Shown: positions 1-51,436, numbered from the whole stretch's first letter. The stretch is DNA of 62,915 bases, filler included, from 6 parts of 6 records of this genome joined end to end with filler, not necessarily neighbours in it, one strand, 5' to 3'. Notes: generated by a model from the sequence alone, not told the origin. Made by a program: numbers and translations.

Positions 1-30
1 ACTCTCACTCTCACTCTCACTCTCACTCTC
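1..30. repeat. (ACTCTC)n hexamer microsatellite encoding (Glu-Ser)n on the minus strand
   Basis: Five tandem ACTCTC units, in frame with the RING-PHD gene. Confidence 0.85.
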
Positions 31-578
31 GATAAAACTGTCACTCGGACATGTCGGGAGTGTATGAGATCCAGTCCGTCTCGGGGGAGGAGGGAGACTC
101 ACTCTTGCTGCCACACAGGACTCACAGAACCAGTCTTCGTATGGCACATGGGGCAATGCCGGTGTTAGACAGTCAATGTGATACCCGTCGTCACACCCAT
201 CGCACAACAGCAGAACATCCTCCCTTTCCCCTGAGCCGCATATCACACAGTTCGACTCAAGGATAAACCCGTATTCGGCATCATCTTTCTGAACTCTTGC
301 TTCTACGTAGAGTGGTATTGGCCTGCCGCGCTGACTTTCGCGATATATGCACCCAAAGTCTACCTTACACAAGGGGCATGAAGTGCAACGGCGTGACCAC
401 AACTAGTTAGGTGTATGGGTTAGAGAAGATAATATAGATTGAGCCACGTGCCTACCAATATGCAATCATAGCAGAACCGGTGCATACAAGATATCTTGGC
501 CACGCTTCGTGCCGGAGTTGGACTCAAGCAGATTGCACACTCCACAGGCTCATTCAACGTGGGTGCAGTGCTGCTCAT
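1..578 (-). CDS. RING + PHD finger protein (PHRF1-like), 3' end truncated by window edge
   Basis: Not in the ORF track. Manual translation from ATG at 578: MSSTAPTLNEPVECAICL...CMHRFCYDCIL [GT-AG intron 403-455] LWSRRCTSCPLCK (C3HC4 RING), then CVICGSGEREDVLLLCDGCDDGYHIDCL...WFCESC (PHD); runs off the window in an (ES)n tract. Confidence 0.9.
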
Positions 579-699
579 TTAGGCGTATCGGAGCGATAGT
601 TTGGGGTGGGTGGCTATTACTATCGCGCTCTGTCCATATGTCGATGTAATAGCAGGGTGGGTCTGACTACTAAATACTCGCTCTGAGTCGCGATCAGAC

Positions 700-1580
700 A
701 ACCGGACGGCACTTGGAGCGGCTACTCGTATTCCACTGTCGCTCCTGCGCGTGGGTCTTGCTACACCGCCATCCGGCGCCAGCCCACATGTGGGCCGCTG
801 CGGCAGGCGCCGCGACCATTGAGTTGCTGAAGACGGGGATCCCCGGCCACCGAGGTCCGCGCTGGGGCCGCTCAATCGGACCAGCGGCGCCGGGCTGTTC
901 GCCGCCTCCCCGGGGCACTGATGAGGACACTGCGGCGCCACTGGCACCTGTGCCGGAAGCCTTGTGCCGGAGCGTAGTCAGCCGGGCGGGACAGTCTCTC
1001 GGGGCGGGGCGCCTTGGCGGCTTGCGGGGGCGGCCATAACGGCCGAGTCAGCGAAGGCTAGCCGGATGGGCGGGGCCGGCCGGCAGGCCCCGCGCGGCAC
1101 CGCCCCTCGGCTGGGTGCCGGCCTTTGCCCGCCTGGTTTCCTCAGTCATCTCCCGACAGCGGCGGCCGTCGTCCCGGCGCGCGCTGCCAGTCACCGGGCC
1201 GACGCTGAGGCAGCGCAACTTCCCGGGTCGCGCCACCCGGCCGGAGCCCCGGACGCATGGAGTTCCGTTTTGGCGGGAAGCCGATGTGACCATCGCCCTG
1301 GCACTGTCCCCACAATGGGGGATTGATTGATTGTTTCGAAGTCGATTCCACGGCGGTGAGGCTCCAGTTCTTGCCGCCAATGCCGCGAACCGGCGCGAAC
1401 CGGCGGCGACCGCAGCGCCACTCCCATCCCCATGATGGACCCGGCGCGGCCCCAGCCTCGTTCAACAGTACCAGGCCAGGTCAGACGCAGCCGCCGATAG
1501 AAGAGTCATCAGCACGTGCCGTGCTCTGCCAGTAGCCCCCCGAAAGAGCCCGCCGTCGCACGTGACCGACACCAGCCGCC
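700..1580. promoter_or_regulatory. GC-rich island between divergent genes (putative bidirectional promoter)
   Basis: CCGG/GGCC/CGCG-dense stretch between RING-PHD (-) and ERG2-like (+); only G/P/A/R-rich spurious ORFs. Boundaries approximate. Confidence 0.55.
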
Positions 1581-1658
1581 TTCTCATCTAAGCGATAGAC
1601 AGTTTTTGTGGTATAAGAAAGTGACTTCGGCAACTGTTTTAGTTTTGTACACACTACA

Positions 1659-2550
1659 ATGGAGCAACTTTCCTCCTATTGGGCGCAGGCCCTGGCCGCT
1701 TATGCCGAGTCACCGCAGAACTTTCATATTGCCGGAGCGTGTCTTGCAGTTACCATGGTAGGCCTTCTTTTCAAGAAGGCCATGTATGGGTACGTGGAAA
1801 ACTATTTGGGGGGGAGTGCAACACTGAAACCATGAGATAGCCCTTGGGTGTTTGATCCGAAAGTGATCGACAAAGTAGGGAAAAAAGCAGTTAAACAGAA
1901 GAAAACGTTAGAGGAGCGCCTTGACTTCATTCGTGATGAACTGAGCAAGGAGTACCCTGGTAACAATATATGATACCTTAGTGTATAATGCGCTAATTCA
2001 TTTGCAGGTAAGATACTGCAGAGCCGCGAGTGGGCCATGTACAACTCGGGGGGCGCTAAGGGAGCAATGTTTCTTTTGTACTGCTCCACGTGGGAATACG
2101 TAATGGTGAATGGCTCTGCAATTGGATTTACTGCATTGACTGGACGTCACTTGGTTGAGTTTCATGATGTTGTGATCGATGGGGAGGTACAGGAGATCGA
2201 CTATTGTTTCTAGAATGGAACTGAATTGCTTTGGTAGGTGTGGTATTTCCACGAGAACACTCCCCACGTGAAGGAAACCTATAAAGAGGGCGACTTCGTG
2301 TTCATGGGGGCTGGTACTGCAATGGGCACTGCAGCGCCCGACAATTTTTGGTTGCTGGAGTACGCCCGGGGACCCATCCCAAGTTTGATGGTAAGGAATC
2401 ATTTATTTGCGAGGCACAAACCGATTCCTAAAAGAGGAAACGCAGATGTTTGGATTTTGGGACATTTTCTTCTCCACATTGGATTTCTACACGCTTTTCC
2501 GCACTATGTACGTATATGGTAAGGCACAAATCCACGCCATGTTCCATTAA
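1659..2550 (+). CDS. ERG2/sigma-1 receptor family protein (C-8 sterol isomerase-like), multi-exon
   Basis: Spliced: N-terminal TM, WVFDP, EWAMYNSGGAKGAMFLLYCSTWEY, TGRH, WLLEYARGPIPSLM, FSTLDFYTL; ends YGKAQIHAMFH*. Confidence 0.85.
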
Positions 2551-2580
2551 AGCAATACTCCCGTCCACAAGATGCGATAC

Positions 2581-3996
2581 TTAGACCGGTGGACTTGGAC
2601 CATGGATTCTCCTCAAGAACCCAGCAATATTCAGGACCTCTTCCCAGGATTCATGCAGCATTCCAGACATGATTGGATAGACGTGGAACAACCCTAGCTT
2701 CTTGTGTTAGTCTGAATCGGTGAATCACGACATGGCCACACCTTCTCCCTCAACATATTCGACGTCGACGCCATCCTCCTTTGCCCGACTAGCCAAAACC
2801 TGCGATTCACTGAATAGAATCTCATCCGTCCCCACCTGTATAATATTGTAAGCGCTTTCTGCGCCAAAATCCAACGAGCACATACATTAATATACATGGG
2901 AGGGAGCCCTGCATATGTCTTGGCGTAAGAGGGAGATAGTCTTGGATCAGCGGCCGATGTGTCCCCCCGGACAATGTCAGCGACCTGAAATTGAAAAAAT
3001 TCAGAAACAACGCTGCCGAGGACTGGCGACCACCCATTGTACCACTGTGACAGCTTTCTGGGGTAGCATGGCGTCAATTTCTGCTTTTGTCGTGTGAGAG
3101 TGCATCTGGGCTGTTAAATCCATCCATGGCGACAACACAACCATTGACGCAGGCAGTGGGGCGCCAGAATCACGTAAGGCCAGACCAGTGGACACTGTCA
3201 ATCCACCACCGGCAGAATCCCCTTATTGTAGGTCTATCAATGTCCTGAAGTGCATTCATAACATCGACACACGCACCTCCAATGCTGACTCTCTTTGAGT
3301 TCACTAAACTATCCACACCGCCATCCATGATAGGGCACTTGCCACCCACAACCCAGTCGTAGGATTCTAAGGCATCTTCCTGACAGGAAGGAAATGGATG
3401 ATCTGCAGAGAGCCCACCGTAAGAGAATGAATTGCCAGCTACTTCTACACTGCGAGTACCGGGAGCAAGACGATAGTTGACCATAATTCCGGCTCCTCCA
3501 GTCAAGTTGCAAACGTCTGCTAAGTAGTCTAACGCATTCATAAGTTTCGCATCGCCAACAAAAATGCAACTCGTACTCATATGTTGACCCATTTTAGGGA
3601 AAATATAGCCGCCGCCGGGGTACCATACCAAAACAGGCTTGGTATTGTCAAAGTCTAAACTGCACGTTCAGTCGGGCAGGTAAGGGCCTCCCCTACACAT
3701 ACCCTGAGGAACAACCATATTTGCCACCACGTTACTAGAAATGCGCTCCTCATATACAGTCATCTGCTTCAGGCTCTTCGACCTTGGTGACATAGAATCC
3801 ACCAATGGCATCAGCGACCTGACAGCCCGAATCCTCGACACTGTCTGAGCAGGTGTTGTACGTTGTGTAACAACTAGACCTATCAGAGGCTTCAGCTGCA
3901 GCCCATGTAAGCATGGAGCCAAATTGTATCCATCGTCACACTTACTGATGTCCTACTAAAGTGAGAAAGTACCTTCGCGGCTGCTGAAGGTGCCAT
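2581..3996 (-). CDS. alpha/beta hydrolase, HSL/GDXG lipase-esterase family, multi-exon
   Basis: YPGGGY (HGGG-like), YRLAP..PFP, GDSAGGGL nucleophile, LSPWMDL, LPPMYI..GGDEIL, GLFHVYP; stop TAA at 2581-2583. Confidence 0.85.
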
Positions 3997-4089
3997 GACG
4001 TTCTAAACTAAATATAGTTATTGCTTATTCTTGTTTATAATTTGTGTCACGCCGTATTAAAGTACTAGGCGGCCAGTCGCTCACGTGGC

Positions 4090-4900
4090 TTCTGTTCCGG
4101 TCATCCTGCGGCTCCGCAGCGACGAGCCCTAGCTCCGGACGGTCCCGCTGGTCGGCTCAGTCCGGAACCGGGCGCGCGCCGGTGCCCGGGCGGGCGGCGC
4201 CGGACGGCCGGCCGTGGCATCTCAGTCCCGCCGCCCGGCCACTCATGAGTGGGGGCCTCAGCCGCCGGGGGCCTGCGACGGGCGCCGGTCGCGCGAACGC
4301 GGCCGGCCCCCCGCGGGCCCGGAGGCCGGGCCCGGGCCGCCGGCGGGACCGCACCGGGCGGCCGGGCAGCCGGGGGGGGGAGGCCCGAACTGCGAGCCGC
4401 GGGCGCCGGGCCGCGCGCGGGACGACTGGGCTCCCGCGCCCCAAGCAAATCTCAAACCCCAAGATTGCATCGAGATCACAATCACGCTAGGGCCCCCGGG
4501 CCCCTCCCTCCGAGTCGCCGCCGGCGCGGGATGCCCTCGTCACGGCCCTGTGACTCATCAGACAAACACCCTGTTGTGCTAGTGAGTGTTCACTGGTGCT
4601 CACCGGCCGGGCCGCGCCCCGGCCGCGCCCCGGCCCCGCCGGGCCGCATGGCGATGCGGGCGGGACCTCCTCCGGCTGGCGTGGCCCTGCCGATGCCCCA
4701 GTCCTCATCCCGGGCTGGGCTGGTCTTGGAGTGACAGCATCATCGCATCGCCGCCCGGCCGCACTGGCGGTGGTCTCTACCAACCAGGGTAGTGGAGTAT
4801 GGCATCGCGCCGACGCGAGGGTGCCGCACCGCCGGTTGGGTCACGACTGCGCACGGCCGGTATTCCGCGCCTCAGGCAGTCAGGGCGCGCACATGGTATG
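4090..4900. promoter_or_regulatory. GC-rich island between divergent genes
   Basis: Between hydrolase (-) and Sec8 (+); includes perfect palindrome CCACTCATGAGTGG (4239-4252) and TGACTCA near 4551. Confidence 0.55.
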
Positions 4901-5131
4901 AGCCAGACCACTGCCGAGAACCAAGTGCGCTGGCTCTCCCAGGTTGTGGCTTTGCCAGGCGTTGCTCATAGCCTGGCAAATTGGGACACCGCATCAGGTG
5001 GGGTGCCTGAGAGGAAGCCTCACGGATAGTCGAGCTTTTGTCGACGCAACAAGACCATCTAAGCAGAGTAGGTGCGTAAGTATTCCAAGTCACAAGGGTT
5101 GTAGAGAACAGTGGTGCGGCAGTGGTGCGGC

Positions 5132-8100
5132 ATGTCTGGCTATGGTGGCTATGGTGGCTATGGCGGTGGCGGCTACTATGGTGCCGGAGACTCCGAACGC
5201 AGAGACGCCCCAACCAGGTCTACCAGGCGTGAGAAGGAGAAAGCTAAAAACCTGGAAGCCACAGTGAACTGGGGAGCCCTCAAGGCTGCTCTCGAGAAGC
5301 TACCGTCGAAATATGGTGACCCAGCTTACGAGCATGCGTCACTATACCCCCATCTGGTCAATCATGGTATCCTTGACGTAAGTGTGCTACAGCATCAACG
5401 TACGTCATTCGATTGCTTATATATGGGTGTAGTCTGCCGAGTCAGCACAAGATGAGGCCAAAGACTTGGCCAAAAGGAAAGAGAAACTGGAGTATTATGT
5501 CGGCGAGGTTGTTAACTGCCACCACCTTGCCTTCAACCACTCCATCTTGGTATGTGGCACAGCAACGTGTCAACTTGTGCAAATATAACTCGTGTCCTAC
5601 CAGAATTTCACCAAGATTCTTGAACAGTTTAACAAGGCTCGTGAGACCTTAGAAGTTCTGAAAAAGGATGCTGTTAAGTGTGAAGCTTACTTGAATGTTA
5701 GCACGGACAAGATTAGGCAGCAATGGCTCCAAGATATTCAGTACCAGGTCTGTTAGGTGACAAGGGTGACGACTTCATGGCTCACTTAGTGCATAGGAAA
5801 TGAACAAAATATTCACCAAGATTGACGAGCTGCGCCGAGTTCCTGCGCTCCTTAGTCAGTATGTGAGCGGAAATCACTTTGTTCATGCATCCACACTGCT
5901 AGTGGAGTCTCTTGATCTGGTTCTGCAGCCAGATATCAGTCAGGTATGGAAGCGGGTCTCCCTAAAAGTTCGTTCCAACACCTAATGGTACCTCTAGGTT
6001 GGGGCTATGGATGCCCTCCGTGAAGATCTCTTCCACGGAAAGGATGACATGTATAGTAAGATTCTAGAACAGATTCAAGGTGTTGTATACCTGCAAGCTC
6101 GTGTTGGTGACCAGTCAATGGGTGCAAATGACGAAGACGGAATGCTTGCCACTGTTGCACGTACTCGTTTGAGGAGGGATTCTATCATGGCGCCTATGGG
6201 TGCATCGGATCGCAAGATGCAGAAGGCTGAAATGGATGGAGCGGATCTGCTCTCAACGTCACGAACAGGCTGGGAATACCTTGGGGGGAGCTACAAGAAC
6301 ACGATAATGGTTGATTCGCTCGGATCCAAGGGAGCGGTCGGTGAAAGTGTTCACTCCAACCCTGCCTCTAACCCTGAGGCGTATCTCCGTCTCCTTGTTG
6401 AAGCACTGCACATACTCGATCGCGCAGGGCCTGCACATACCGCATTGAAAAGAGGTCTCAGCTCAAACTTCGCTGAACTCATTGAGGCCCACTTTGAATC
6501 GTTTCTGGAGACCGGTGGTGAACCTGTCTCATCGCATATTCAGCTCGGTGGTGTATCTGGCCCGAGCCTTACCGATAAGAGCAAGGTACGGGTGACTGGC
6601 AGTGAATGTTTGCATATATTTAGTTTCGCGCAGAGTGTATATGTGACACAGTACCTTGACGGGCTGTTCGATGCATTACTGGCAGTAATCCGTAACCACC
6701 TAATTCTGCTGAACATCTTTGAAAAGAAATCCAACTCATCCAGCATCCAAGAAGAGAGTGATGGACCGGTATGGTGTATACCCAAATAGATGGAATTTTA
6801 TCTTACCTATGCCTACAGATATTTTCTGGGAATACTCTGTACAATGGACAGAACATGTGGCAAGATTTGCAAATGGAGCTGCTCATCATGCTCCACGATC
6901 ACTTGGGAGCTCCCCGGCCTTCTCGTGAAGCTGGGAGTAATTTCATTACCTCAAGCGAGGTGAACGTGACGGCAACATCGGCCACAGTCAAGGCAAAGAC
7001 ATCGGTCAGTGGTGCGGGATGCTCGTTTGCGTTTGCGGATAGTGAGGCTGCAAGTGTTTCTCGCTTGAGTGTGCGCGAGCCCGGCACTGAAGGACAATGT
7101 GGGTTTTTATATCTATGGGGAAAGAGGGCGGAGATTCATCACTTGTTGCTGCAGTGAACTTTCGGAATATTGAGTCCAGTCTCTTTGAGAGTGGACCCTA
7201 CCACATTTTGGTCTGCTACAAGCCTACTGTAGAATTTGTGCACCAGGCGAATTCTCTGTTGCGCTCAAGTCGTGTTGCGGTGCAGGTGTGGGGTTGGTTC
7301 GATGGCCAAATCATTCCTATCTAACACACCTAATTTAGTCTCCTGGATTCCTAGAGCAAAAACTGGACGAGTACGTCGACAACTTTTTCCTTCCCAAGAT
7401 GACAACAGACTTCCGCATGAGGTATCTTTGAGGCTCTTAACCCAAACAGTGGTTTGACAATGTAGCAGGCTGGCAAAGGTATTGGATGATCGACACGCAT
7501 TCCTGCCAAAGGAAACGGGATGTGCAATGAGTGCCACCAGTATGTAACTGATGTGACTTTGTGGTGTTTTCTCTAATATTGGAACCGTTCAGCTGAGTAC
7601 CAGGCAGACGATGAGAACAGGCCATTGCTCCAAGGAGCCGTGGAGATAGCCAATCACATTCAAGAGTTGATGTCTATGGCTGTTGCAATGCCCAAGTACC
7701 TTCACGAAATGATGGCAATGGTTGAGAATACTCTGCTCCGGTTCCTTGATAAGTGTACGGGGCGATTTCGGGAGGCCTTTGAAGACGTAGCTGCGGGAGA
7801 AGTCTTGGGCGAACCTGGAGTCGATCAACTTTTGACAAGGGACCCTAGTTGGCTCGCTCTCCGCAAGTCTCATCGGACATCCGATGTATCGATGGATCCC
7901 AAGAAATTCACTGAGGAGGAGTTGAAGCTGGAGTTACCGCTCTTCCTGAAAATGGATCAATCGGTAGGAATAACTGACTGATTATGGGGGCTGCCTACCT
8001 GACGGCCTTTGGCATAGTGGAAGACCATTTCGCCTGGAGATTATACGTTGTTGGCTAACCTCAACGATTCTTTTGAGTGGCTTGGGGAACGCGTCCGCCA

Positions 8101-8946
8101 ATTGTGTCGCGATGGCTCACACAAGATTAAGGATGACTTGCTAAGGTCATTTGGTGATGTGGAGAACCTCGTGGAGAAATGCTCCGCGCTGTCAGAAAGG
8201 TGCAGTGGGTTTCATATGTGTTGGTGGAATGGCAACTAAATCACCTGAAACGAAGGTGTCTGCTGCTGCTCCGCATGGATATTCGGACCAGAGTGGCCGT
8301 GGGGCTGTCGAGTGTGCGCAAGAGTTCCTATGCCTTTGATGAGGTTCCAAACATGCCCGATACATTCATTCTAGATCTTAACGCCGATCTTATTAACGTA
8401 CATACTGTTCATGGGTACCCTTGCATTTCAATCTAACCACCCGCGCAGACACATACTGTTCTTTCGCAATATCTACCTGCACCCAAGCTTAAGTACTGCC
8501 TTGAAGGCATTGGAGATCTTGCGTCAGTCCTTCTTCGGAGATGCATTCGGCACATTCGGGTTGTTAATGATAACGGAGTGATTCGCATGTGTCGTAATAT
8601 TACGGCTATGCATCAAAATCTTATTCATATTCGGCCGGACATAGGATCTGGGGACTTCGATAAAACTCGAAGGTATTACGAACTGCTTAAGCTGGACGAT
8701 CAGGTATGAAAGAACAGTCGGGTTGACCGACGAGATAGCCTGACTGGCTTGCTGCAGGACCTTCTCTCCTTCACCTCTGAACATCAACGAGACTACACCA
8801 TGGATGAGTATGAGAAACTATTTGCGTATGTATTGTCAGCTGTGCTTTTTTTCGGTGTATACTGACATGAATGCAGGGTTGAGACTCCACGCAGACAAAA
8901 TACAGAGAAGACTCTGGCTGTTCTTAGCCATATTTTCAAGCATTAA
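5132..8946 (+). CDS. SEC8: Exocyst complex component Sec8/EXOC4, many short introns
   Basis: Spliced segments LEYYVGEVVNCHHLAFNHSI, KIDELRRVP, GPYHILVCYKP, LLLRMDIR, NDNGVIRMCRNI..MHQNL, DFDKTRRYYELL resemble Sec8 N- and C-terminal conserved blocks; Gly/Tyr-rich N-terminus. Confidence 0.8.
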
Positions 8947-8973
8947 ATGTACACATTCGTTTCTCTTTACTAT

Positions 8974-14639: not shown

Positions 14640-14643
14640 CTCC

Positions 14644-29990: not shown

Positions 29991-30024
29991 TGGTTCACCC
30001 ACCTAACCTCCCTCAAGGGAGGAA

Positions 30025-39500: not shown

Positions 39501-39803
39501 CTTGCTGCAGGTCGAGGCCACGTACACATAGTGAAGCTTCTTCATAAGCATGCTCCTGCTGTTGAGGATACCGCCCCTATTGCTAGCGCAGCGTCCCACG
39601 GTCATCTTGAAGTGATCAAGTTTCTCCACTCAGCCGGCTATGCTGCAAGAGGCAACGCAATCGATAATGCAGCTCGTGGGAACCATCTTGAAACGGCCCG
39701 ATGGATTGACAAAACTATGGGCGTTACTGGATCCGAAGAGGCAATGGACTGGTTGGCTGCCGGGCCTGCGGCTCCAGCTAAAGGCAACTGTGCCGTTATG
39801 TAG
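36564..39803 (+). CDS. Kinesin-like protein with degenerate switch motifs, coiled coil, ankyrin repeats and C-terminal CaaX (CAVM)
   Basis: VKVFVRVRP, FVFDQVF, GARRSGKTYTM, YLQIYNE, HVPYRDSKLTRVLQ, SLRFGAR; a long array of AMDxAAxxGxLxVVKWLH-type repeats; ends KGNCAVM*; intronless. Confidence 0.9.
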   Translation: MGKKNRKGSADRKLPSSPSQSPAANHANGAESQSSTPTKVPGTGAPSLDLAITGDGGRSKWDMLRTSLETANRFKVAASEQKPNADRVKVFVRVRPQNPVTEGNDFTDQGVEFPDSGTTDSMIKVRPYTTAVDYVDAMMAARSPREDRLSGVSPMQRERLLSTASTGSRRERRSSVDSVSSDAPPQNRNRSPTVEMMRPKTPTGHVPSTYVPSNQTTEQTFVFDQVFRPTASQSEVYADIASGVVEGVVSGVNGSIICHGARRSGKTYTMCGPPGEDEGSLRGMLPRAVDHLFSLLEDDQMDFKILVTYLQIYNERYIDLLDPVSNETIAVLEDKESGVSVLSGVCEEFAVSRLEVLELQRQGYRFAIKDEKDSSSAAGHMIMRLSVIQQKKDDSAGKLFASLYLVDLGVPQKNMGTKDSIVCLGNVIEALTSSDRKHVPYRDSKLTRVLQAPLSGLFNTAMVCCVSPAKQCTVESLLSLRFGARCKKVRLQPKVNVTFGVKEYQMKVRDLEAQLETLQTVVQAKGWADCLSKDVMELTHRRDKAKESCEKLNAECVELMKHKDDLLIELQGTEATKNQVLRQLESLQAESARKKAEVAAREEELARISKEITDSVEGRRAAESRMKTLLLGRSETRKDLDEYEGLHAWIVAVRSGRAQPAGEDDGDHLAAVGDLESISTANKLLWFTSEAADSAACMGHLPVLKWLHEKKYSCTTAAMDRAAGAGRLDIVKWLHENREEGCTTRAMDWAARSGRLDVVKWLHNNRSEGCTIAAMDGAAASGHVQMLNWLLQNRSEGCSIHALDGAAASGNVAVMKWLSEHHLIPGGPSASAVAAAATNGHMNVLEWIKGTNEIFPVSIRAVEGAAQRGHLAILKWLDEQCVPDGAGCSELAVTEAAASGHMAVLEYFKEKHFDSCFTSRAVDCAAGSGHLQVAKWLASIGLKCTPDAYDLCAAGGHAGGLEWLFTTYGEEVRPRRALELAAGRGHVHIVKLLHKHAPAVEDTAPIASAASHGHLEVIKFLHSAGYAARGNAIDNAARGNHLETARWIDKTMGVTGSEEAMDWLAAGPAAPAKGNCAVM

Positions 39804-39932
39804 GCCGCACATCTGGCCATCCTGCACTTGTTGAACGAAATTGCCATCAATGCCGCGCGAGCGTGACTCCAGCGGAAGAATTATGCAGCGTATTAAATCC
39901 CCTATATTGGAATGAAGGTTGGTCAGCGTTTA

Positions 39933-42032: not shown

Positions 42033-42129
42033 TGCCTCATGCCCCCTTCTACGTGGAGTCATACACATGCTCTATAAATACAGCTAGCTGTCGCGACATC
42101 ACTGTGGAACAGCCCTTCCGGTTTCACCG

Positions 42130-42325
42130 GTCAGCTTGCCCCCGACCGGGCCCTTGGGAAGGCCGGGGGCCCCGGGGGCCCCGGGCGACCGCGATGGCCG
42201 GGCGGGGCCGCCGACCGCCGGCGGGCCGGGCGGCGGCGGCATGGCGGCGGCGCCTCCGGCGTCCGCGGGCGGCCCCGGCCGCCCGGGGGGGTCCGGCCGG
42301 CTGGCGGCCCGGCCGGGGCCTGACT
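42130..42325. promoter_or_regulatory. GC-rich island between divergent genes
   Basis: Nearly pure G/C tract between JmjC (-) and CCT3 (+); TGACTCA near 42355. Confidence 0.55.
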
Positions 42326-42817
42326 GTTATGCGCAGTTTTCCATTTTAGGCCAATGACTCAGATATAATGTATACGATGGATCGAGCATTCCACCAATCC
42401 ACAAATAACGAATAGTCTCAATAAAACAAATGTCGACCCTCAAAGAAAAATTATATTTCAAAAATTTGCGCGAAATTCGGCGCCGAGTCAGCAAGGTTCC
42501 GAGGTGACAGGTCGACGACCGATGTTCGCTTCGGTTCTCAAGGCTTTAGTGGTTGTTGACCCGAGCCTAGGGCTCATGATGATTCTTTGCAAAGACGGTC
42601 AGGGTCCTTCATTCGGGTCGGCTGCTTCGCTAATGATGACTCTGGGCGGGTCGGTTCGTTTCCCGGTGGGTGGACTGTGGACTAGGTTTGAAACGGCCTT
42701 GGCCGCCTTAACGCCCAATACGTTTCTGCGTTCTCTCACGGGCTGCACGCCCACATATTTATGCCCCACCGCCTCCTTTTGGAAAGCAAGGAGGGCTTTT
42801 TCTCAGAACTATACAAG

Positions 42818-44531
42818 ATGTCTGGGCAGCTTCCCGTCATGGTTATGAGTAAGTTGTTGGCGGTGTTTGCGGGTTTAAGCAGGCAGAGAGACTAACGTGG
42901 GGTTTCCACGAACAGACCAAAACACAAAGCGCGAGCAGGGCCGTAAGGCTCAGCTCCAGAACATTCAGTCCGCCAAGGCTGTGTCTGAGATTATTCGTAC
43001 CACTCTCGGCCCCAAGTCTATGCTTAAGATGATTCTGGATCCTATGGGCGGTATTGTCATGACCAACGATGGAAATTCCATCCTGCGTGAGATTGATGTG
43101 TCACACCCGGCTGCTAAGAGCATGATTGAGCTCAGCCGCACTCAGGAGGAAGAGGTTGGGGATGGTACCTCCGCTGTCATCATTATTGCTGGTGAGGTTA
43201 TGCACGTGTCTCAGACATTTATTGAGAGGCAAATGCACCCCACCGTGATCAATGCCGCATACAGGGATGCGCTCAACGACGCGCTTAAGGTTGTGAAGGA
43301 ATGCTCTTTCCCTGTGGACTTGAATAATGACGAGGAGCTTATCAACATTGCTTCCACATGCATTGGGACCAAGTTTATGTCTCGTTGGTGGGAACAGTTG
43401 GTGAAGATGGGCCTTAAGGCTGTCCGTACTGTTTACATAGAGGAGGAGGGCCGCAAGATTATTGACACCAAGCGTTTCGCCAAGGTTGAGAAGATTCCGG
43501 GCGGTGAGCTCGAGGATTGCGAGGTGTTGGACGGTGTTATGCTCAACAAGGATGTGACTCATCCCGGTATGAAGAGGTCCATCAAGAACCCGCGTGTCGT
43601 GCTTCTTGACTGCCCCATGGAGTACAAGAAGGGTGAGAGCCAGACAAACGTCGAGGCCATGAACGAGAGTGACTTCGAGACGCTCCTCCGTATGGAGGAA
43701 GAGTACGTCGAGAATATGTGCAAGCACATTCTGAGGGTGAAGCCTGATGTTGTGGTCACTGAGAAGGGTATCTCGGATCACGCTCAGCACTGGCTCAAGA
43801 AGGCCGGTGTCTCTTGCCTTCGCCGTGCTCGTAAGACCGATAACCTTCGTATTGCACGTGCCTCCGGTGCCACTATTGTGCACCGTCCTGAAGAGATCAA
43901 GGAGTCTGATGTCGGTACTAAGTGCGGTTTGTTCGAGGTTCGTAAGATTGGTGACGAATACTTCTCCTACTTCGTAGAGTGCAAGGACCATAAGGCTTGC
44001 ACTATCCTGCTCCGTGGTGCATCTAAGGATTTCCTTAACGAGGTAGAGCGCAACCTTGGGGATGTGATCCAGGTCCTCCGCAGTGTGTTCCAAGAGCCCC
44101 TGCTTGTCCCCGGCGGTGGTGCCGTCGAGATGTCCATCTCCACCGCTCTTAATGCCAAGTCCAAGCTTGTGGAGGGTGTGAAGCAGCTTCCCTACCGCAC
44201 CCTCGGTTCCGCCATGGAGATTATTCCCCGTACCCTCTGTGAGAACTGCGGTGCCAATACCATCCGTGTTATCACCGCCTTGCGTGCCAAGCACGCCGAT
44301 GGCAAGAACACCACCTTCGGTGTTGATGGAGAGAAGGGTGTAGTAGCTGACATGAAGACCCTCGGCGTTTGGGAGCCGTTTGTCGTAAAGGAGCAGACGA
44401 TTAAGTCCGCCGTCGAGTCCGCCATGATGCTTCTCCGCATCGACGATATCGTCTCCGGTATCACCAAGAAGGCCCCCCAGGGCCAGCAGCAGCAGCAGCC
44501 TACCCCCGAGGAGATGGAGGAGGCTATGTAA
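42818..44531 (+). CDS. CCT3: T-complex protein 1 subunit gamma (CCT3)
   Basis: MSGQLPVMVM [intron 42849-42915, branch site GACTAAC] NQNTKREQGRKAQ; TNDGNSILREI, GDGT, KVEKIPGG, EYKKGESQT, LLRIDDIVSG. Confidence 0.97.
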
Positions 44532-44702
44532 GCAAATCTTCCTCTTCCCTCTGTTTTCCGTTCCCAAAGGCGTCTTTTGGACGGAGTCTTACCGGCCACG
44601 TCGCATTGCGCGATGCGTATTTTTCAGTAAATTTTTGCATCGTGGTTTCTTCAAGGTTGTGATAATACTTCCCGGCCTGACTAAAATTGGCGGGAATGTG
44701 GT

Positions 44703-44802: not shown

Positions 44803-45860
44803 GGGGGGGGGGGGGGGGGGGGGGGGGCGACCAACTAGCCGGACGGGCCGCGGGCGGCCGGACCGGCGGGACATCGAGTCTGGCGCCGCCGCGCTGGCCG
44901 GGCCACTGACTGCAGCGGGGTCGGGTCTTTCGTGAGTCCGAGTCCGCCTTGTCCGATCCCCGATCGCCCGGGCCGCCATAGTGTGACCGTCGGCCGGCCG
45001 CGTGGCAGGCCCGACGAAGGACGTCCGGCCGGGCGGCCCGCCCGCTCGAGCCGAGCCCCGTGTGCAGTGCGGGGTGCCGGCCCGGCGGACGGAGTGCGGT
45101 CGCGGCAGTAGCGGGCCGCCCGAGCTCGAGTCGCATTTGCGGCAGGCCAGTCACTTCACCGGAGCCGGCCCTCAGAGCTCGCACGCCGCCGGCGGCCGCC
45201 GGCGGCCGCCGGCATCATGTCACAGTAACAGTACGGACGTACGACTGATGAATCATCAGACCTAGCCTGATGAGACGGTACTCCCGCAGCACCCAGCCGG
45301 CAGGGCCGGGTGGCGCCTCAGGCGCGTGGCTAATTTTAGATCAACTATGCCCATCCGTGAACGAGGATCATCCACGGGTCCCATGCGGCACGGCATGCCA
45401 GCGCGGCGGCCGGTCCGGGGATGACGGACCGGCCGTCCCCCGGTCGCCATCGCCCGAACGCATCCGGCGGCTCGGATGGTGCGACCGGGCAGCACGGGTT
45501 TTTGGCGCCCGGCCGCCGGCCCCGGCCCATCCGGCACCCGGCAGTGACGGCCGGGCGGCCCGGGCTCCGGCCCTGGGCCGCGGTGACGGCCGCACGCGGC
45601 CAGTGTGAGTGTTTCCAGTCCGGACGGAGAGGAGCGGGTGACCAGGCCCACACCCCAACTCACAACCGCATCCTCCGCCGCCCCGGCCCCTTCCCCCTGG
45701 GTCACGTTCTCACTGTGGTGCCATGGACCCCTTACGTCACTACCGCCCCCCGCTCCCCCCCCCTGCCAGTGGCGCCAGGCCGGGCGCTTGTCACTCTGCC
45801 CGGACGGTCCAGGCATCCGAGGAGAGAATGGCACGCTAAATCTGGCCAGGGCCATAGCCA
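44803..45860. promoter_or_regulatory. GC-rich island upstream of the METTL6-like gene
   Basis: Same composition as the other islands; tandem palindromic GGCGGCCGCC units near 45185-45213. Confidence 0.5.
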
Positions 45861-46015
45861 GGCTCTAGTCGTGAGTAGCCTAACCGCGAGAATTTCCGGT
45901 TGCGGGGAGAGGACTATGGGCCAGCCGGTAAGCATGCGTTAGTCCCAAACGGTGGATCGCCTTCCAACTACCTATATAGGGCATGCAAAGCAGCACATCA
46001 CAACATATATAAACC

Positions 46016-47360
46016 ATGTCGTTTCAGAACCACAAGCGTCGCGAGAAGAATCACCTGGGGTATTGGCTTGGTGGCGGTATACCCAACTCTGTGAAGAGTC
46101 TGGCGGAACAACAGGCTTCCGCCGGCTCAGCAGACGGTAGAAAGGCTCGGTGTTTGGGCGCCGCGAAGCTACTCATAGAGAACCCCGACAAAGTATGTCT
46201 TGTCTTGTGTATGTATGTTCACTTGACTTATGTGCTTCTTAGGTTGAGGAGTATTTGGCAGAGACTGACGGAGATCCGGTACCAGAGGAGTGGCGTACGT
46301 GACTATCTAGTGTCAGTGTGCTGTACTAATGTGCACTGTAGAGGAAAAGTATGAGAATGAAGCCAGCAGGTATTGGGATTTGTTCTACCTCCAAAAAGGA
46401 AAGGAGTTCTTCAAGATGAGGCACTACCTCAAACGGGTACTTGAACAGTCTTGGCATCAGATGTGCGTGCTAACAAGACATAGGAACTCCCTGAAATCGC
46501 GGAGGTTACGGAGAAGGCATCTGTCGTTGAAATAGGATGTGGTCATGGCAGCAACTTGTTTCCCATGCTGGAGCTCAACTCGAATCTTTATGCATATGCT
46601 TATGATTTTAGCGCGCAAGCTGTAGAGCAAGTTAAGGTTTGCAGGGCAGGACTCAGAGTGTCGAAGATGCAAGGCATTGACAGTTGCGTAGGCAAATGAG
46701 AATTTCGACCCAACAAGATGCCAGGCTCATGTTCGTGATATCACATCGCAGCCATTGACCGAGGTCATCGAGGTAGAGTATCCACTAGCGGGGACAGTTT
46801 GCGCCTCACTAACTGTCATATGAAGGGCGGGCTTGCAGACTTTGTCATGGTGTTCTTTGTCTTGTCTGCGATTCATCCCACAAAGTATGTGGAAGCGCTC
46901 AGAAACCTCAAGCAGTGCTTGAAGCCAGGGGGCATCCTGTTGTTTCGTGACTATGGACTTCATGACTTGGCGCAGCTAAGGTTTGCACCTGGTCATAAGC
47001 TCGAGGAGAACTTTTATGTTCGCGGAGATGGGACGCGGTCGTACTTTTTTCGCGAAGGTATGGTGATAAGTCATGATTGGGTGGTGAGCAGCATGCATTT
47101 ACACATGAAATATAGATAAAGTTCGCGAGATATTTTCTGAGGCCGGCTTCGATGTTTTGGAGGTCGAGAATGTTAAAAAGGAGGTCACAAATCGGAAGCG
47201 AGAGGTCACAATGGCCAGAGTGTGGATCCAGGGCAAGTTCTGCATTGCTGGCACTGGTGGCAAGATTACGAAGAAGATTGATGCGCCTGTTCCCTCCCAA
47301 GAAGACGAAGGAGAAGCCTGCCATGAGGATAAGAAGAGGAAGGTGTCTTCAGAACATTAA
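46016..47360 (+). CDS. tRNA N3-methylcytidine methyltransferase (METTL6/METTL2/Trm140 family), multi-exon
   Basis: YWDLFY...FFKMRHYL, EIGCGHGS, AYDFS, FVLSAIHP, LKPGGILLFRDYGLHDLAQLRF, FYVRGDGTRSYFF, RVWIQGKF. Confidence 0.93.
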
Positions 47361-47391
47361 CTGTCCCGGGGAAGGTAGAATCTTTGAAGCT

Positions 47392-49911
47392 TTACTTTCG
47401 CGCCTTGAGTCTTTTCAAGTATCTCTCTCGGGCTGCTGCAACATCAGCTTCCTTATTTGTTCGTGATGTCTTCGCTGCATCCTTTTTTTCTGCTTTCTGC
47501 GCGCCATCATCAACCTAATGGAAATCCGTGAGAACTGGGGTTGTAGATCGAATCTCTAATCATACCTGTTCACGATCGCGTTTTCCGGAACTTGTTTCTC
47601 GCCGGCCAACCAGGCGGCGGACGTCAACATTGTTCAACCTGGGGATAAGTCGGCTTACCCAATCGATATTTATCTTGGACAGGGTCCGCATGAATCCCTT
47701 CGAGGTCCATACTATTTCGTGATAAACTACCACATCCACATCATCCTCGTGGGCCAGGATGGAAGTGGGGTGCGGAGCCACTAGCCTGCCATCCTCACAG
47801 AGCATTCTAAATCCTGTGTCATAAAGGCTCAGACCATAAAATCCACGGCATATTTAAGGGACGTCATACCTCCCGCCCGCCCTTTCCTCGCCGCATTCAT
47901 AAAGAAACCAGCGCATATTGCCTTCAGAATAGCTCTTGGATCCCGAGATCGCCCGATGGATAGCTTTTCTTTCCTAACTATATCAACTATTTGTTCGCGG
48001 ATATCCGACGCTTGCCTCAGAGCCTTATATTGGAAATAATTCTCTTCACACCATGACTTTGACTTCCGCTTATCCAAAAACTTCTCAAAAATGTTCATCA
48101 AGGTTATGTGGTCGCCTGACTCATCCGATAGACGGGCTGTCTTTAGGTCTGCTTCCTTCATCCTCTCGATATTGGTTGGTCTATAGAATACATTTTCTGA
48201 TGACAACATGGCAACAATGCTGATCACGGCATCGGAGCAACCAAGTTGGGCTGATTCAATCACCTGGGGCAGCTGTGAGCATAGAATCCTTATCCGCACA
48301 ACCTCGTTTGGGTGATACTTACGGTACGGGAAAGACTAGGCTCCAAGGGAAAGCTCGCCATTGATCTACCAAGGGTAGTTATGTTTCCGTCAGCATCCAG
48401 CGCTCCGAGGCAGTGCAACTTCACAAAATGTTGCAAGTCAGCACCAACAGAAACAAATGGCGAGCGGATGCGAACCTGCTTCAGAGCTTCAATCATCATA
48501 TCTTCGCTAGGCTTGTCCAGGAAATCAAATCCAATTGTATCGTTGATTCCAAGCATTTTCAAGTACAGCAGCACGTTGCTGAGATTGACTCTCTGAATCT
48601 CCGGAGTAGTGTTTTCAGACATATCCTCCTCGAACTCCGCGCGAGAGTATAACCTGTAGCACTGACCCGGGGCAGTACGACCAGCACGGCTGCACCAGCA
48701 TTAGACATCACGTTACGAGGCTGCGTATGTTCACGTACCCTTCACGCTGCTTTGCAGCGGTTCGAGAAATACGAACCACAGATAGGGCCTCAATCCCTCG
48801 CCGTTGGTCGAAGCTTTTCTCCTTAACCCTACCCGTGTCAACCACATAGAGAACCCCAGGGATCGTAATGGATGTCTCGGCAATATTCGTGGCAACCACG
48901 ACCTTTCTTGTCCTTTGCGGCGCGCTGGCAAACACTTTGGTCTGCACCTGTAAAACAGAATATTAGCGACCAAGTGCAGTATCTACAAATGCGACCGCTG
49001 ACCTCAGGCGGAAGGCTTCCGTAGAGAGGTAGTACTAGCATATCCGGTAGATCTGGGATTTGTTCTTTCATAATTTCCTGTTCCTTACGCAGAGCCGTGC
49101 ACGCCTTTTCGATTTCATCTTGCCCGGTCAGAAACACAAGGATATGCCCCCGTCCTTGATCCCGATGAATCGTCATAACTGTCTCACAAGCCCCTTTCAC
49201 ATAGTCCCTATCGCTCTGTACAGAATGGAAGGTGTGAACGGGGAAGGTTCTGCCCGAAACGTGCATGACAGGGCAGTTGTTCATGTACTTTGAGAATTTT
49301 TCATGGTCGAGGGTGGCGCTTGTCACCAGGACCTTCATATCGCGCCGCTCGTCAAGGGTCTTTTTCATCATTCCCATCAGAATGTCCGTGTGTACGCTGC
49401 GCTCATGCGCCTCGTCCAAAATGACAACATCATATTTAGTGAGCATGGGATCTGCCAGGCACTCTCTCATCAAGCAGCCATCAGTGATATACTAAGATTT
49501 TGAGAATAAGTCTATAGCCATTAGCACTCCGACTTGCAACATACCGTGACTTTCGTTTTCGAACAAGTATTGTCGTCAAAGCGGACAGTATATCCAACCT
49601 CGTCGCCACAAGGAACTCCCATTTCTTGGGACACCCGCCTAGCAGCACTAATGGCCGCCACCCGCCGGGGTTGCGTGACAGCAATGGTTTTTGCCATCCC
49701 TTCCTCAAGTAGATACTGGCAAAGCTGAGTTGTTTTTCTAAAGAAGTTGTGAGTGCGAATATCCTGCCATGAAAACACTCACTTACCCAGATCCTGTTTC
49801 TCCAATCAGAACTAAAACATTGTTAGTCTTAAGAGTCTCTATGATTTTCCCCTTAAACTCTGCAATAGGCAGTTTCTTTCTGTCCTCCTGAAGTTCCTGG
49901 AAAGTGGACAT
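47392..49911 (-). CDS. DEAH-box RNA helicase (DHX40-like), multi-exon
   Basis: LPI..., [40 protein letters not shown]2 and OB-fold segments; short N-terminus and C-terminal AARERYLKR tail suggest DHX40. Confidence 0.9.
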
Positions 49912-50044
49912 GGAAATAAAGATTTCTAAACTTCGATAATTTTTTCTATTGCTGCTCAGGCTATATGTATGTCATTTGAGCCAGCAGGGCTAGAACAGTG
50001 CCAACCAGCTTTGTGATCTAGGTGTGTTCATAGTTCCTTAGGAT

Positions 50045-50560
50045 GTTGCCCGAGCCGCGCTGCCGACCGGGCTCGGGCCGGCCGGCGCGTCCCGCCCCGG
50101 GGGGGGGGGGCAGGGCCGACGCGGCGCCACTCACCGTTCGGGCACGTGGCGTCGCCCGCCCAGCTCGACGGCCGGCCGCGCCGCCGGGGGTAGGCGGGGC
50201 GGCCGGCCGGGCCCCGCCCGCGTCAGGCACGGCGGCGGGGGCGGATGGCGGGCCCGGGCGCCGACGCGCGGCACTGGCACCGCCCGGCGCGAGGCCCGCG
50301 TCCGGCCGCCTGACTTGACCCGGTGCGGCCCCGCCCGGCCGGCCGGACCGGAGCTGCGGGCCGCCCGTCAGTCGGGAGGCCGACGGCGGCCCGCCGGCCC
50401 CGTGGGCCGCGCGGGGCGCGCCTGAGTGCGGCCTCCGCCCGAGCGGCGGGCAGGGGCCGCCCGCCGCCGGCACGCTCGCCAGCCCCGGTCGGCGTGCCGT
50501 GCGCCCGGCCGGGCCCCTACTACTACTTGTCGCGCCTGCGGTGGGCAACGGCCCCACCTG
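50045..50560. promoter_or_regulatory. GC-rich island between divergent genes
   Basis: Between the DEAH helicase (-) and the small membrane gene (+). Confidence 0.55.
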
Positions 50561-50670
50561 GCTTTTGCTCCGGCCTCCAAAAAGTGCTCAGTGCCCCGTG
50601 CCCAGCTCCTTGGAAGTATTTATTTTAGAATCGCCACTTCTATCATCAAAACGTGTTTCTGCCACCAATC

Positions 50671-51135
50671 ATGGCCTTCACAATTTTGCGTTTGGTTGGA
50701 CTTATTGCTGTATTGTCGGGGATGGGACTTTTCTTCACTCCAAAGCTTGCAGTTCAGAGCATAAAACCTCTTAGTAGCGACGGTGAACTGTTTATGAAGG
50801 AGTTCGGTAGTGCGATGACAGGTGGGTGTCCAAGTCACAGATAACAAGTATATTCATGACTCGGCTGACGAGCCTGTTTGGTAGCATTGGGAGTCATCAC
50901 GTTCCTGACTGCATCTGCGCCGATATACGTGCAGTCAAGGGTCAGCGCAGCTTTGACGCTGTTCTTAGCTATGATGACTTCCCTGCGATATGAGGAGGAA
51001 AATGGATTCATCGACCCGGTTTTGGACCCCTCCGTGCTAACGGGGGAGTTCTATGGTCTCGGTGGTGCTACCATATTCTTCGCTTTATATACATTGTGGT
51101 TGTTGCAAAGTGGATCTAAGGCGAAGGTGGACTAA
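50671..51135 (+). CDS. Small 4-TM membrane protein, one intron
   Basis: MAFTILRLVGLIAVLSGMGLFF...AMT [intron about 50822-50884] ALGVITFL...SGSKAKVD*; Lys-rich tail resembles an ER-retrieval signal. Confidence 0.6.
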
Positions 51136-51436
51136 TCAAGCCGATGGGAACTGGATGTTCGTGATCCATTAGTCTGTGAAGTGGCGGCCAAGATCAGGCC
51201 ATCTTTGAGTGCCGCACTGAGGGTACTTATTGGTCACCCGTCTAAGATCATGGCATTCAGTTACGTCGTCCACGGCGGTCGGAGACAAGTGCCTCATAAA
51301 GGAAGCGAGACCATACATAGGGTTCTGGTTAGTCTAACAGCGGAACAGCAGTGCCGTTGCATAATTGAGATATCTATTCAGTATTCTGAAACAAAACGAT
51401 AGAATTTGAAGGTCGATCGTCTGACCCCCAACTCCA

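Follow-up and report, generated by a model that had tools for sequence, protein, structure and literature searches.

Does every gene in this piece of compact eukaryotic DNA lie on the strand opposite to that of its neighbours, and if it does, what is the unit that is being repeated? The question is raised by a window of 62,915 nt, the whole stretch analysed, which consists of six contigs joined by runs of N with the spacer TTAATTAATTAA (Table 1). Contigs 2 and 6 are bacterial. Contigs 1, 3 and 4, which the original prediction had grouped together, have in common their codon usage, GT-AG introns of 40-70 nt and GC-rich islands. The grouping holds: synonymous codon usage correlates with an r of 0.60-0.68 among the three, compared to -0.12 to 0.07 with contig 5, whose codon usage is unrelated. 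The best explanation is that they come from one compact intron-bearing eukaryote, an unplaced protist. No relative above 65% CCT3 identity was found by database search, where the best matches reached 64-65%, or by a metagenome scan (80 of 229 loci kept), and in a FastTree phylogeny of 121 rows CCT3 formed an end branch of 0.44, in no supported small clade. For one gene, a thraustochytrid homologue is found among the homologues of other protists. GC-rich stretches in metagenome loci L001 and L002 were high-GC3 coding sequence of another organism rather than islands.

Gene models and strand alternation

Gene models were rebuilt independently of the earlier gene list, from stop-to-stop ORFs, Pfam searches on exons and reading of the sequence, as well as from a splice-aware dynamic programme applied to both strands of each interval. 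Run without interval limits, the gene finder went through whole contigs, and per-interval runs were used instead; introns matched with a loose regular expression gave too much noise to mark strand. Contigs from two public runs of one sample, neither of them listed as RNA, were placed on 1-20000 only (none for contigs 3 and 4). Their removed introns and adaptor-like loose ends suggest that they are cDNA-like.

The examined DNA of contigs 1, 3 and 4 amounts to 45.8 kb and 20 genes. The rebuilt models read - + - + - + - + - + in contig 1 (10 genes), + - + - + - + in contig 3 (7 genes) and + - + in contig 4 (3 genes). The strand therefore switches at 17 of 17 neighbour pairs, i.e. every same-strand array is one gene long, and the strict alternation first proposed is recovered with independent models. 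A coin flip would give this result with a probability of 2^-17 = 7.6e-6, and the switch probability has a one-sided 95% lower bound of 0.84. For 16 of the 20 genes, the strand call is supported by homology in Pfam or PDB, by spliced cDNA-like contigs, or by both. In twelve, the called strand gives a Pfam match that exceeds the curated cut-off, and two others (c1G3 and c4G1) match at E<1e-3, under the cut-off. Introns were removed in the cDNA-like contigs for 6 of the 9 genes of 1-20000, with a splice polarity that agrees with the strand call (15 splice joints are listed, and a further 22 exist). For the remaining 4 of the 20 (c1G8, c3G1, c3G4 and c4G3), the strand was called from gene-model scores only.

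Table 1. Contigs, genes and GC islands of the window (positions counted from its first nucleotide; E, E-value; model, gene-model score of the called v the opposite strand)
Feature	Position	Strand	Evidence and remarks
Contig 1	1..24554		
Contig 2	24655..30024		
Contig 3	30125..44702		
Contig 4	44803..51436		
Contig 5	51537..57008		
Contig 6	57109..62915		
c1G1, RING + PHD finger protein	1..578	-	PHD E 1.5e-11; open at contig's left end; ATG 578, intron 403-455 (by sequence reading)
c1G2, ERG2/sigma-1-receptor-like	1659..2550	+	ERG2_Sigma1R E 3.6e-6; model 41.1 v 2.8
c1G3, possible alpha/beta hydrolase	2581..3996	-	three CT..AC introns removed in contigs; start 3996 or 3811, stop 2581 given its removed introns; Abhydrolase_3 E 9e-4, below cut-off
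c1G4, putatively Sec8-like (weakly supported), about 1010 aa	5132..8865	+	GT..AG introns removed; model 175 v 15; tagged 5' end 5110; Sec8_C only E 0.048; largest exon, no PDB match
c1G5, 891 aa	8974..11902	-	five CT..AC introns removed in contigs
c1G6, DUF2505-containing, 598 aa	12795..14639	+	Pfam E 4e-6; GT..AG intron removed; tagged 5' end 12777
c1G7, RING finger protein	14644..16832	-	zf-C3HC4 E 3.6e-6; two CT..AC introns removed; tagged 5' end 16873
c1G8, secreted cysteine-rich protein, possibly EGF-like (by eye)	17776..18819	+	model 86.5 v 8.5; no Pfam match
c1G9, cyclin-domain protein	19273..21312	-	Cyclin_N E 1.6e-9; two CT..AC introns removed
c1G10, histidinol dehydrogenase	22757..24351	+	Pfam E 2e-110
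c3G1, unknown protein, open 5' end	30127..31883	+	model 58.1 v 5.1
c3G2, PHO80-type cyclin	32219..32947	-	Pfam Cyclin E 1.4e-42
c3G3, mitochondrial-type ribosomal protein L36	34310..34680	+	Ribosomal_L36 E 3.4e-18; first exon two codons, intron 34316-34368, C-terminal tail 67 aa
c3G4, multi-pass membrane protein (by eye), single exon	34880..35611	-	model 51.4 v 4.6; no Pfam match
c3G5, kinesin with ankyrin repeats	36564..39803	+	Kinesin E 8e-63
c3G6, ankyrin + JmjC/cupin protein	39933..42068	-	Ank_2 E 2e-14, Cupin_8 E 2e-13
c3G7, CCT3 (T-complex protein 1 gamma)	42818..44531	+	Cpn60_TCP1 E 6e-155; named matches; intron 42849-42915; start assigned by sequence reading
c4G1, methyltransferase-like	46016..47360	+	Methyltransf_23 E 4.6e-6, 26.9 bits vs cut-off 27; model 46.3 v 2.6
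c4G2, DEAH-box RNA helicase	47392..49911	-	HA2_C E 8e-11; PDB DHX8 E 6.5e-51
c4G3, 134-aa membrane protein (by eye)	50671..51135	+	model 16.2 v 4.1; weakest gene call; intron 50822-50884, score at 96.7th percentile; no Pfam match
GC island 1	681..1590		70% GC; between c1G1 and c1G2
GC island 2	4051..4950		74% GC
GC island 3	12051..12680		flanked by tagged 5' ends 11913 (-) and 12777 (+)
GC island 4	16931..17530		weakest; 62-66% GC, peak 69%
GC island 5	21451..22530		
GC island 6	33031..34230		
GC island 7	35711..36350		
GC island 8	42081..42370		76% GC
GC island 9	44803..45870		truncated by contig 4's left end
GC island 10	50001..50610		80% GC

A pattern of this kind could be produced by the annotation itself, if tandem genes had been merged through invented introns, or if small genes were hidden in the spacers. 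Two models are exposed to the first objection. c1G5 consists of an orphan N-terminal part of 284 aa and a conserved protist domain of unknown function, and in many homologues this domain starts 13-100 residues from the N terminus. However, the 48-nt intron 10845-10892, across which the original prediction had joined 10878-11902 to 8974-10775 in frame, is removed in contigs from both runs, together with four other introns. A single 2713-nt contig covers 8951-11896, i.e. the whole gene, and the gene's only tagged 5' end in an outermost position lies at 11913. Moreover, N-terminal extensions of up to 848 aa exist in the family (the C-terminal part has 269 homologues). As to its identity, c1G5 had no PDB match, a word-index search was empty for both halves, and its 5 exons had no Pfam match at E<=10 except one chance-level row; Atlas leads to CFAP77 and CFAP96, at 0.78-0.81 only, were not adopted. 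In the other model, c3G1, two ORFs separated by 200 nt and lacking homology support (no Pfam match, no usable Atlas match) are connected through introns 30953-31005 and 31134-31193, placed by reading of the sequence. With matrices trained on RNA-verified introns only, the scores of these introns fall at the 98.5th and 99.7th percentiles among 9652 background GT..AG pairs, and it is on these two good-scoring in-frame introns only that c3G1 is taken as probably one gene.

Missed genes inside the gaps, named from the outset as what could break the pattern, were not found by Pfam, tRNA, Rfam or codon score. The islands do contain ORFs of up to 287 aa, a length that we estimate is to be expected, given the scarcity of stop codons at 65-80% GC, and 0 of 10 long island ORFs match Pfam at E<=0.1. 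The gaps between genes gave no tRNA and no Rfam family. The ORF 42522-42845, upstream of CCT3, scored 0.0 per codon (the 5th percentile of 151 real 108-codon windows is 0.079) and had no Pfam match. Conversely, the minus-strand gene that the alternation had predicted at 1-578 is real. Even one hidden tandem pair would still leave 17 of 18 adjacencies alternating, and we consider an annotation artefact very improbable.

GC islands at gene starts and facing stops at gene ends

Ten islands were found, of 290-1200 bp and 62-80% GC, with a pooled CpG o/e of 1.01, compared to 50.6% GC and a mildly depleted CpG o/e of 0.80 in CDS, and 44.8% GC in introns. Each of the 9 internal divergent spacers, which measure 749-1444 bp from start codon to start codon, holds an island with a peak of 69-89% GC per 200-bp window, and in 9 of 9 the minus-strand gene is on the left and the plus-strand gene on the right. 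No island is a copy of another (best cross-match 43 nt), and neither a skew nor a shared motif was found within them. Upstream of 19 start codons, GC falls from about 0.70 (-450 to -250) to 0.42 (-50 to 0), so that an AT-rich dip, in which TATA-like words are frequent, precedes each gene at the island edge.

Adaptor-tagged loose ends at 5110, 11913, 12777 and 16873 precede the ATGs of genes 4 to 7 of contig 1 by 22, 11, 18 and 41 nt, respectively, and point outward from islands 2, 3 and 4. They are the upstream-most cDNA ends, and putative transcription starts. Tagged ends are also present within genes (3222, 13929 and 15607), and the loose ends at 1085 and 18009 had no match in the window at <=3 mismatches. 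No RNA contig crosses an island; bins 1-667, 4003-4669, 12007-12673 and 17343-18009 are uncovered, which we do not count as evidence. The sole source for assembly continuity across the islands is the contigs themselves.

Convergent spacers are of another kind. In 8 of 8 junctions a stop codon faces a reverse-complement stop codon, at 4-453 bp from stop to stop, and the spacers have 38-52% GC, with the exception of the 4-bp one, between c1G6 and c1G7. Convergent transcripts overlap in at least 2 of the four junctions resolvable by RNA contigs. One contig (record 3 of X1) carries the GT..AG intron of c1G6 together with the CT..AC intron of c1G7; having introns of both polarities, it must merge two overlapping opposite-strand transcripts. 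Another contig extends from 2390 across the 3' exons of c1G3, which are spliced in it, and overlaps the last exon of c1G2.

The two-gene unit of the original prediction is thus upheld locally as to its layout, since pairs diverge (9 of 9 spacers) and then end head-on (8 of 8 junctions). Its single shared bidirectional promoter is not: in front of every gene there is a separate AT-rich dip, with a mean of 42% GC over the 50 nt that precede the ATG, and in the sole pair with both ends tagged, c1G5 and c1G6, the 5' ends are 863 nt apart. The dips at each edge and this separation argue for two core promoters around a shared island, rather than one core promoter.

Comparison with known systems

No report of near-absolute strand alternation was found in the literature searched, which left out most subscription journals and supplements, and over the 45.8 kb examined the alternation is stricter than any printed precedent that we found. 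Among the closest is the alternating gene orientation of Nannochloropsis gaditana and other photosynthetic stramenopiles. In the whole genome of N. gaditana, the longest alternating run has 15 genes and same-direction runs reach 9; bidirectional promoter regions are under 1 kb, and the arrangement is read as genome compaction or shared control (PMC3566019). The alternation there is a bias, compared to 17 of 17 here in 45.8 kb, and GC-rich islands are unmentioned in the accessible part of that text. In brown algae neighbours also tend to lie on opposite strands: in Ectocarpales the proportion is just over 60% ("can be greater than 60%"), and in Ectocarpus 61.7% of the genes flanking TSS-adjacent spacers are in divergent pairs, which share nucleosome-depleted regions and start-site histone marks (10.1101/2024.02.19.579948, 10.1101/2020.03.09.980763). 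Divergent spacers there, however, are short, with a median of 409 bp, and tandem ones are longer, whereas here the divergent spacers are long (ATG to ATG) and the convergent ones short. The long same-strand arrays of kinetoplastid directional gene clusters are absent here, and genes have introns and 5' ends of their own.

CpG islands are usually delimited by a GC content of more than about 55%, a CpG o/e of more than about 0.6 and a length over 200 bp, and the ten islands, with their pooled CpG o/e, fall within these values. They resemble the bidirectional CpG-island promoters of vertebrates in that a GC-rich, CpG-undepleted island separates head-to-head genes about 1 kb apart, and differ from them by the TATA-like elements at their edges. 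The contrast with a CpG-depleted methylated bulk genome is not seen either: since gene bodies are hardly depleted (0.80 v 1.01), the islands are compositional rather than the result of an escape from methylation. About 10% of human genes are head-to-head (PMC5572396). Bidirectional promoters have been defined by transcription start sites that are separated by less than 1000 bp (PMC2670823). Here the putative starts of the one pair tagged on both sides are 863 nt apart, and the other 8 pairs measure 749-1444 nt from ATG to ATG. Adjacent genes with facing 5' ends on opposite strands, i.e. divergent pairs, are found here in 9 of 9 internal cases. Yeast divergent intergenic regions, described as GC-rich, nucleosome-free and recombination-prone, suggest a plausible origin for the islands (10.1101/119768). 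In the portion of that source available, yeast neighbours are not reported to alternate, and by our reading the GC contrast is far stronger in the present contigs (70-80% against 50%).

Interpretation and significance

We give a probability of about 0.7 to an explanation in which divergent gene pairs flank GC islands, with two outward core promoters per island and head-on 3' ends. The two edges of each island would act as core promoters in their own right, firing outward, with 5' leaders that are very short (11-41 nt in the tagged cases), and each gene would end against the 3' end of its neighbour in the next pair. Regulatory DNA would be pooled in the islands; with no promoter ever downstream of a terminator, read-through could not invade a promoter. 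If the islands are moreover the only dispensable DNA, inversions and exchanges with both breakpoints in islands would keep the alternation, so that the pattern would be self-preserving once established. Their GC richness may come from GC-biased gene conversion at recombination hotspots located at promoters. In this scheme we infer promoter function, co-regulation, termination and nucleosome state. The wider statement, that of an obligate pairwise genome, is for us an even bet: more than 90% of adjacencies would alternate genome-wide, with divergent pairs around non-transcribed islands of 70-80% GC, overlapping 3' ends, and tandems all but absent. If true, it would be the mirror image of the one-direction arrays of kinetoplastids, and far beyond the 60-65% bias of stramenopile algae.

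The same layout might also have arisen as a neutral by-product in which alternation has no regulatory role, the islands being break and recombination hotspots made GC-rich by biased gene conversion and gene parity being frozen because rearrangements are confined to them. We regard this as possible, if rather doubtful, and it is compatible with the preferred explanation, not exclusive of it. It draws on the logic that breakpoints in two divergent spacers preserve the alternation, on convergent spacers that are too short (4-453 nt, with overlapping transcripts) to tolerate breaks, on a CpG o/e of 1.01 in islands that share no sequence, which fits a compositional process, and on the GC-rich promoter hotspots known in yeasts (10.1101/119768). 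It leaves the origin of alternation unexplained, and gene duplication should erode the pattern. A plainer possibility is luck in sampling: the genome would have the known moderate bias (about 60-65%), and three perfect runs would have been noticed post hoc. Such biases are in print for Ectocarpales, Ectocarpus and N. gaditana, and the 20 genes in 45.8 kb come from a stretch that was singled out afterwards in a very large scan. However, were the switch probability 0.62, 17 of 17 would have a probability of 3.0e-4, and were it 0.7, of 2.3e-3. Luck in orientation alone would also not be expected to place islands in 9 of 9 divergent and 0 of 8 convergent spacers. Finally, the 15-gene run of N. gaditana is a whole-genome maximum, whereas the 10-gene run here fills the only long contig. 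We therefore hold sampling luck to be unlikely, and more so than the neutral by-product.

Non-random gene orientation in compact eukaryotes has so far been argued from weak biases, in terms of transcriptional interference, shared chromatin, supercoiling and compaction. Were the present run only local, it would add another example to the compact protists that have an opposite-strand bias. If near-absolute alternation is true, this genome would be the natural limiting case, in which all promoters lie at shared islands and all terminators are convergent. Direct tests would then become possible of what tandem arrangement costs, of how colliding polymerases and overlapping 3' ends are handled, and of the part played by GC-rich promoter islands. 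It would also supply an annotation prior for the lineage, each island standing for two gene starts, and compact two-gene expression cassettes.

Origin of the contigs and strand of their genes

The window of 62,915 bases consists of six contigs joined by N runs flanking a TTAATTAATTAA spacer (see the table). Contigs 2 and 6 look bacterial among protist ones: their ORFs are uninterrupted, and they carry LepA (contig 2, 38% GC) or an AsnC regulator, a saccharopine dehydrogenase and two tandem HAMP-adenylate/guanylate cyclase paralogues (contig 6). Genes of contigs 1, 3 and 4 have about 50% GC and are rich in short (40-70 nt) GT..AG introns, in which a CTRAY-like word frequently lies close to the 3′ end. 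Synonymous codon usage is correlated among these three contigs (r 0.60-0.68), which backs the original prediction that they belong to one organism. Correlations with contig 5 range from -0.12 to 0.07, so contig 5 is from a different organism. Because of this difference, its pair of tandem paralogues is no counterexample to alternation; the two are low-complexity proteins enriched in S, T, H and Q, with short motifs in common, and no Pfam family was found for them.

Coordinates of contigs and features in the window (genes numbered left to right in each contig)
Feature	Position	Strand	Remark
Contig 1	1-24554		
Contig 2	24655-30024		
Contig 3	30125-44702		
Contig 4	44803-51436		
Contig 5	51537-57008		
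Contig 6	57109-62915		
c1G5	8974-11902	-	
c3G1	30127-31883	+	
c3G3	34310-34680	+	mitochondrial-type L36
ORF antisense to CCT3	43104-44588	-	495 codons
Contig 5 ORF	51888-53432	+	515 aa
Contig 5 ORF	54231-55994	+	588 aa
(ACTCTC)n microsatellite	1-30		contig 1, left end
G run	24540-24554		contig 1, right end
Outermost tagged end, G4	5110	+	22 nt upstream of ATG
Outermost tagged end, G5	11913	-	11 nt upstream of ATG
Outermost tagged end, G6	12777	+	18 nt upstream of ATG
Outermost tagged end, G7	16873	-	41 nt upstream of ATG

The assembly breaks of contig 1 were probably caused by repeats; the microsatellite at its left end lies inside the PHD-finger gene, and is read as encoding a Glu-Ser repeat. 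For CCT3 (c3G7), no identity above 64-65% was found among the proteins scored or metagenome loci, and the sequence sits unplaced on a long branch of the CCT3 tree; the source organism is without a close sequenced relative in the collections searched. Among the metagenome loci, CCT3 identity peaked at 65% in L001 (830-3103) and L002 (3162-5438), where a 758-codon, very GC-rich ORF adjoins CCT3 on the opposite strand. Both were rejected as relatives: they come from a high-GC organism (GC3 0.92-0.94) unrelated to that of the window.

Genes were called from stop-to-stop ORFs, Pfam on exons, sequence reading and a splice-aware dynamic programme applied to both strands of 20 intervals. In these independently rebuilt models, the order is - + - + - + - + - + in contig 1, + - + - + - + in contig 3 and + - + in contig 4: neighbours switch strand at 17/17 adjacencies, as originally claimed. 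A Pfam match above the curated cut-off lies on the called strand in 12 of the 20 genes (PHD, ERG2, DUF2505, RING, cyclin (twice), histidinol dehydrogenase, L36, kinesin, ankyrin/JmjC, CCT and HA2), and 2 further genes have sub-threshold matches (E<1e-3). The helicase gene (HA2) also matches DHX8 in PDB, at 6.5e-51. With the dynamic programme, the called strand was far ahead in 18/20 intervals, the narrowest margin being that of CCT3 (250, vs 63.5 for its 479-codon antisense ORF); the programme missed c1G1 (PHD) and c3G3 (L36), both backed by Pfam. For c1G8, c3G1, c3G4 and c4G3, all four outside the training set, the strand comes from the gene-model score alone. The ORF antisense to CCT3 has no Pfam match, and a cyclin gene is likewise shadowed by long antisense ORFs, so that strand is not deducible from ORF length alone here. 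The L36 gene has a two-codon first exon, no visible presequence, and a 38-aa L36 domain followed by a 67-aa C-terminal tail.

Missed genes could break the pattern, and none emerged from any of the checks made: a tRNA search of the window found none, an Rfam search no family, Pfam matched 0/10 of the long ORFs within the GC-rich islands described below, and the 108-codon ORF upstream of CCT3 had a coding score like that of non-coding sequence. The probability of 17/17 switches is 7.6e-6 under a coin-flip model and 3.0e-4 at the strongest printed bias (0.62), with a one-sided 95% lower bound of 0.84 on the switch probability, all these values applying to a finding picked post hoc from a large scan.

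Transcript contigs, merged genes and gene ends

Contigs of cDNA-like appearance from two runs of one sample (X1 and X2, run kind unrecorded) were compared with window positions 1-20000. They lack introns at 15 listed joints of 48-58 nt, and at 22 more besides; the removed introns of contig 1 genes have GT..AG ends in G4 and G6, and CT..AC ends in G3, G5, G7 and G9. Single-position differences from the window occur at 16 sites at least, so the allele or strain behind the RNA differs slightly from that of the DNA.

The one apparent exception to alternation had been removed by joining two ORFs into c1G5 through a 48-bp intron. Homology left the question of one or two genes undecided: the C-terminal 523 aa (a domain of about 520 aa, function unassigned) have 269 homologues among protists (Hondaea, MMETSP transcripts and Gymnodinium are represented), whose N-terminal extensions vary from 13 to 848 aa, and the N-terminal 284 aa have no counterpart in 150 listed homologues, nor in other sequence searches. 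By eye, this orphan part contains repeated D-I-x-G words. RNA contigs decided the matter. The joint 10844>10893 (48 nt, CT..AC) is present in contigs of both runs, and one 2713-nt contig spans 8951-11896 with all five introns gone, its length agreeing within a few bases with the 891-codon model; c1G5 is therefore one transcript. An analogous merge is predicted to make c3G1 one gene: its two predicted introns keep the frame through the open 128-nt exon between them. Ranked against 9652 background GT..AG pairs by matrices whose training set was solely the 15 RNA-verified introns, they reach the 98.5th and 99.7th percentiles.

Several contigs of the runs terminate in one common adaptor-like string, which we take to be the end of a template-switching oligo, and which would mark cDNA 5′ ends. 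Tagged ends were found within genes too, so the outermost ones (table) are hints, not mapped start sites. Where such ends exist, leaders are short. Two X1 contigs match the window only as far as 18009 and 1085; beyond these points they carry another 102 and 113 letters, absent from the whole window at up to 3 mismatches. At 18009, the extension would take the place of the 5′ part of c1G8. Either it is an alternative or diverged 5′ exon, or the contig may be a chimera; both readings are possible.

The 3′ ends meet head-on and, at two junctions or more, overlap. At three convergent junctions the stop codons are 4-31 nt apart, so that 3′ UTRs of any ordinary length necessarily extend into the neighbouring gene. 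In X1 record 3, a GT..AG intron of G6 and a CT..AC intron of G7 are both removed, meaning that this contig merges overlapping opposite-strand transcripts. An X2 contig runs from 2390 across the last exon of G2 and through the spliced 3′ exons of G3. At the G4/G5 junction, contigs end about 70 nt apart, with 3′ UTRs of roughly 20 nt.

GC islands between divergent genes

A newly found regularity is the confinement of GC islands to divergent spacers. Ten islands of 290-1200 bp, 62-80% GC, are located only between back-to-back gene starts. Each internal divergent spacer (9/9; 749-1444 nt, ATG to ATG) contains a 200-bp window at 69-89% GC, the c3G6/c3G7 spacer being measured for GC up to an earlier provisional start. 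The eight convergent spacers are 4, 30, 31, 108, 129, 199, 335 and 453 nt long, with 38-52% GC (the 4-nt one excluded). Averaged over 19 starts, GC is ~0.70 at -450 to -250 and 0.42 in the final 50 nt before the ATG, where TATA-like words are common. Paired divergent genes thus flank GC islands whose AT-rich edges adjoin the start codons. Comparing islands with one another revealed no common sequence except 43-nt GC-rich matches, and no consistent skew; CpG o/e is 1.01 in islands vs 0.80 in CDS.

The alternation is confirmed, and both the RNA contigs and the island rule strengthen it. The paired-gene layout of the original prediction holds locally, in contigs 1, 3 and 4, and may hold genome-wide; the "one bidirectional promoter" is better replaced by two core promoters sharing an island. 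The island would be a shared upstream or open-chromatin region with a core promoter on either side.

Comparison with known arrangements

Near-absolute alternation had no case in the full-text literature searched, which covered main texts and few subscription journals. Genes of Nannochloropsis gaditana mostly diverge and converge, with a longest alternating run of 15 in the whole genome, but same-direction runs reach 9 there (PMC3566019), compared with 17/17 switches here. For Ectocarpales, the share of alternating genes is given as one that "can be greater than 60%" (10.1101/2024.02.19.579948); in Ectocarpus, divergent pairs make up 61.7% of the genes flanking TSS-adjacent spacers, and the divergent spacer median is 409 bp (10.1101/2020.03.09.980763). 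Close head-to-head pairs are reported in excess in chromerids ("data not shown", PMC4501334), and 70% of Creolimax lincRNAs are head-to-head with an adjacent protein-coding gene (PMC4739763). GC richness through biased gene conversion at promoter hotspots has been described for yeasts (10.1101/119768), and might also account for that of the islands.

We rate the alternation observed here as an extreme, new form of an already known gene arrangement. Such a layout would shield every promoter from read-through transcription, and rearrangements breaking in islands at both ends would keep parity, so that the pattern may be stable.
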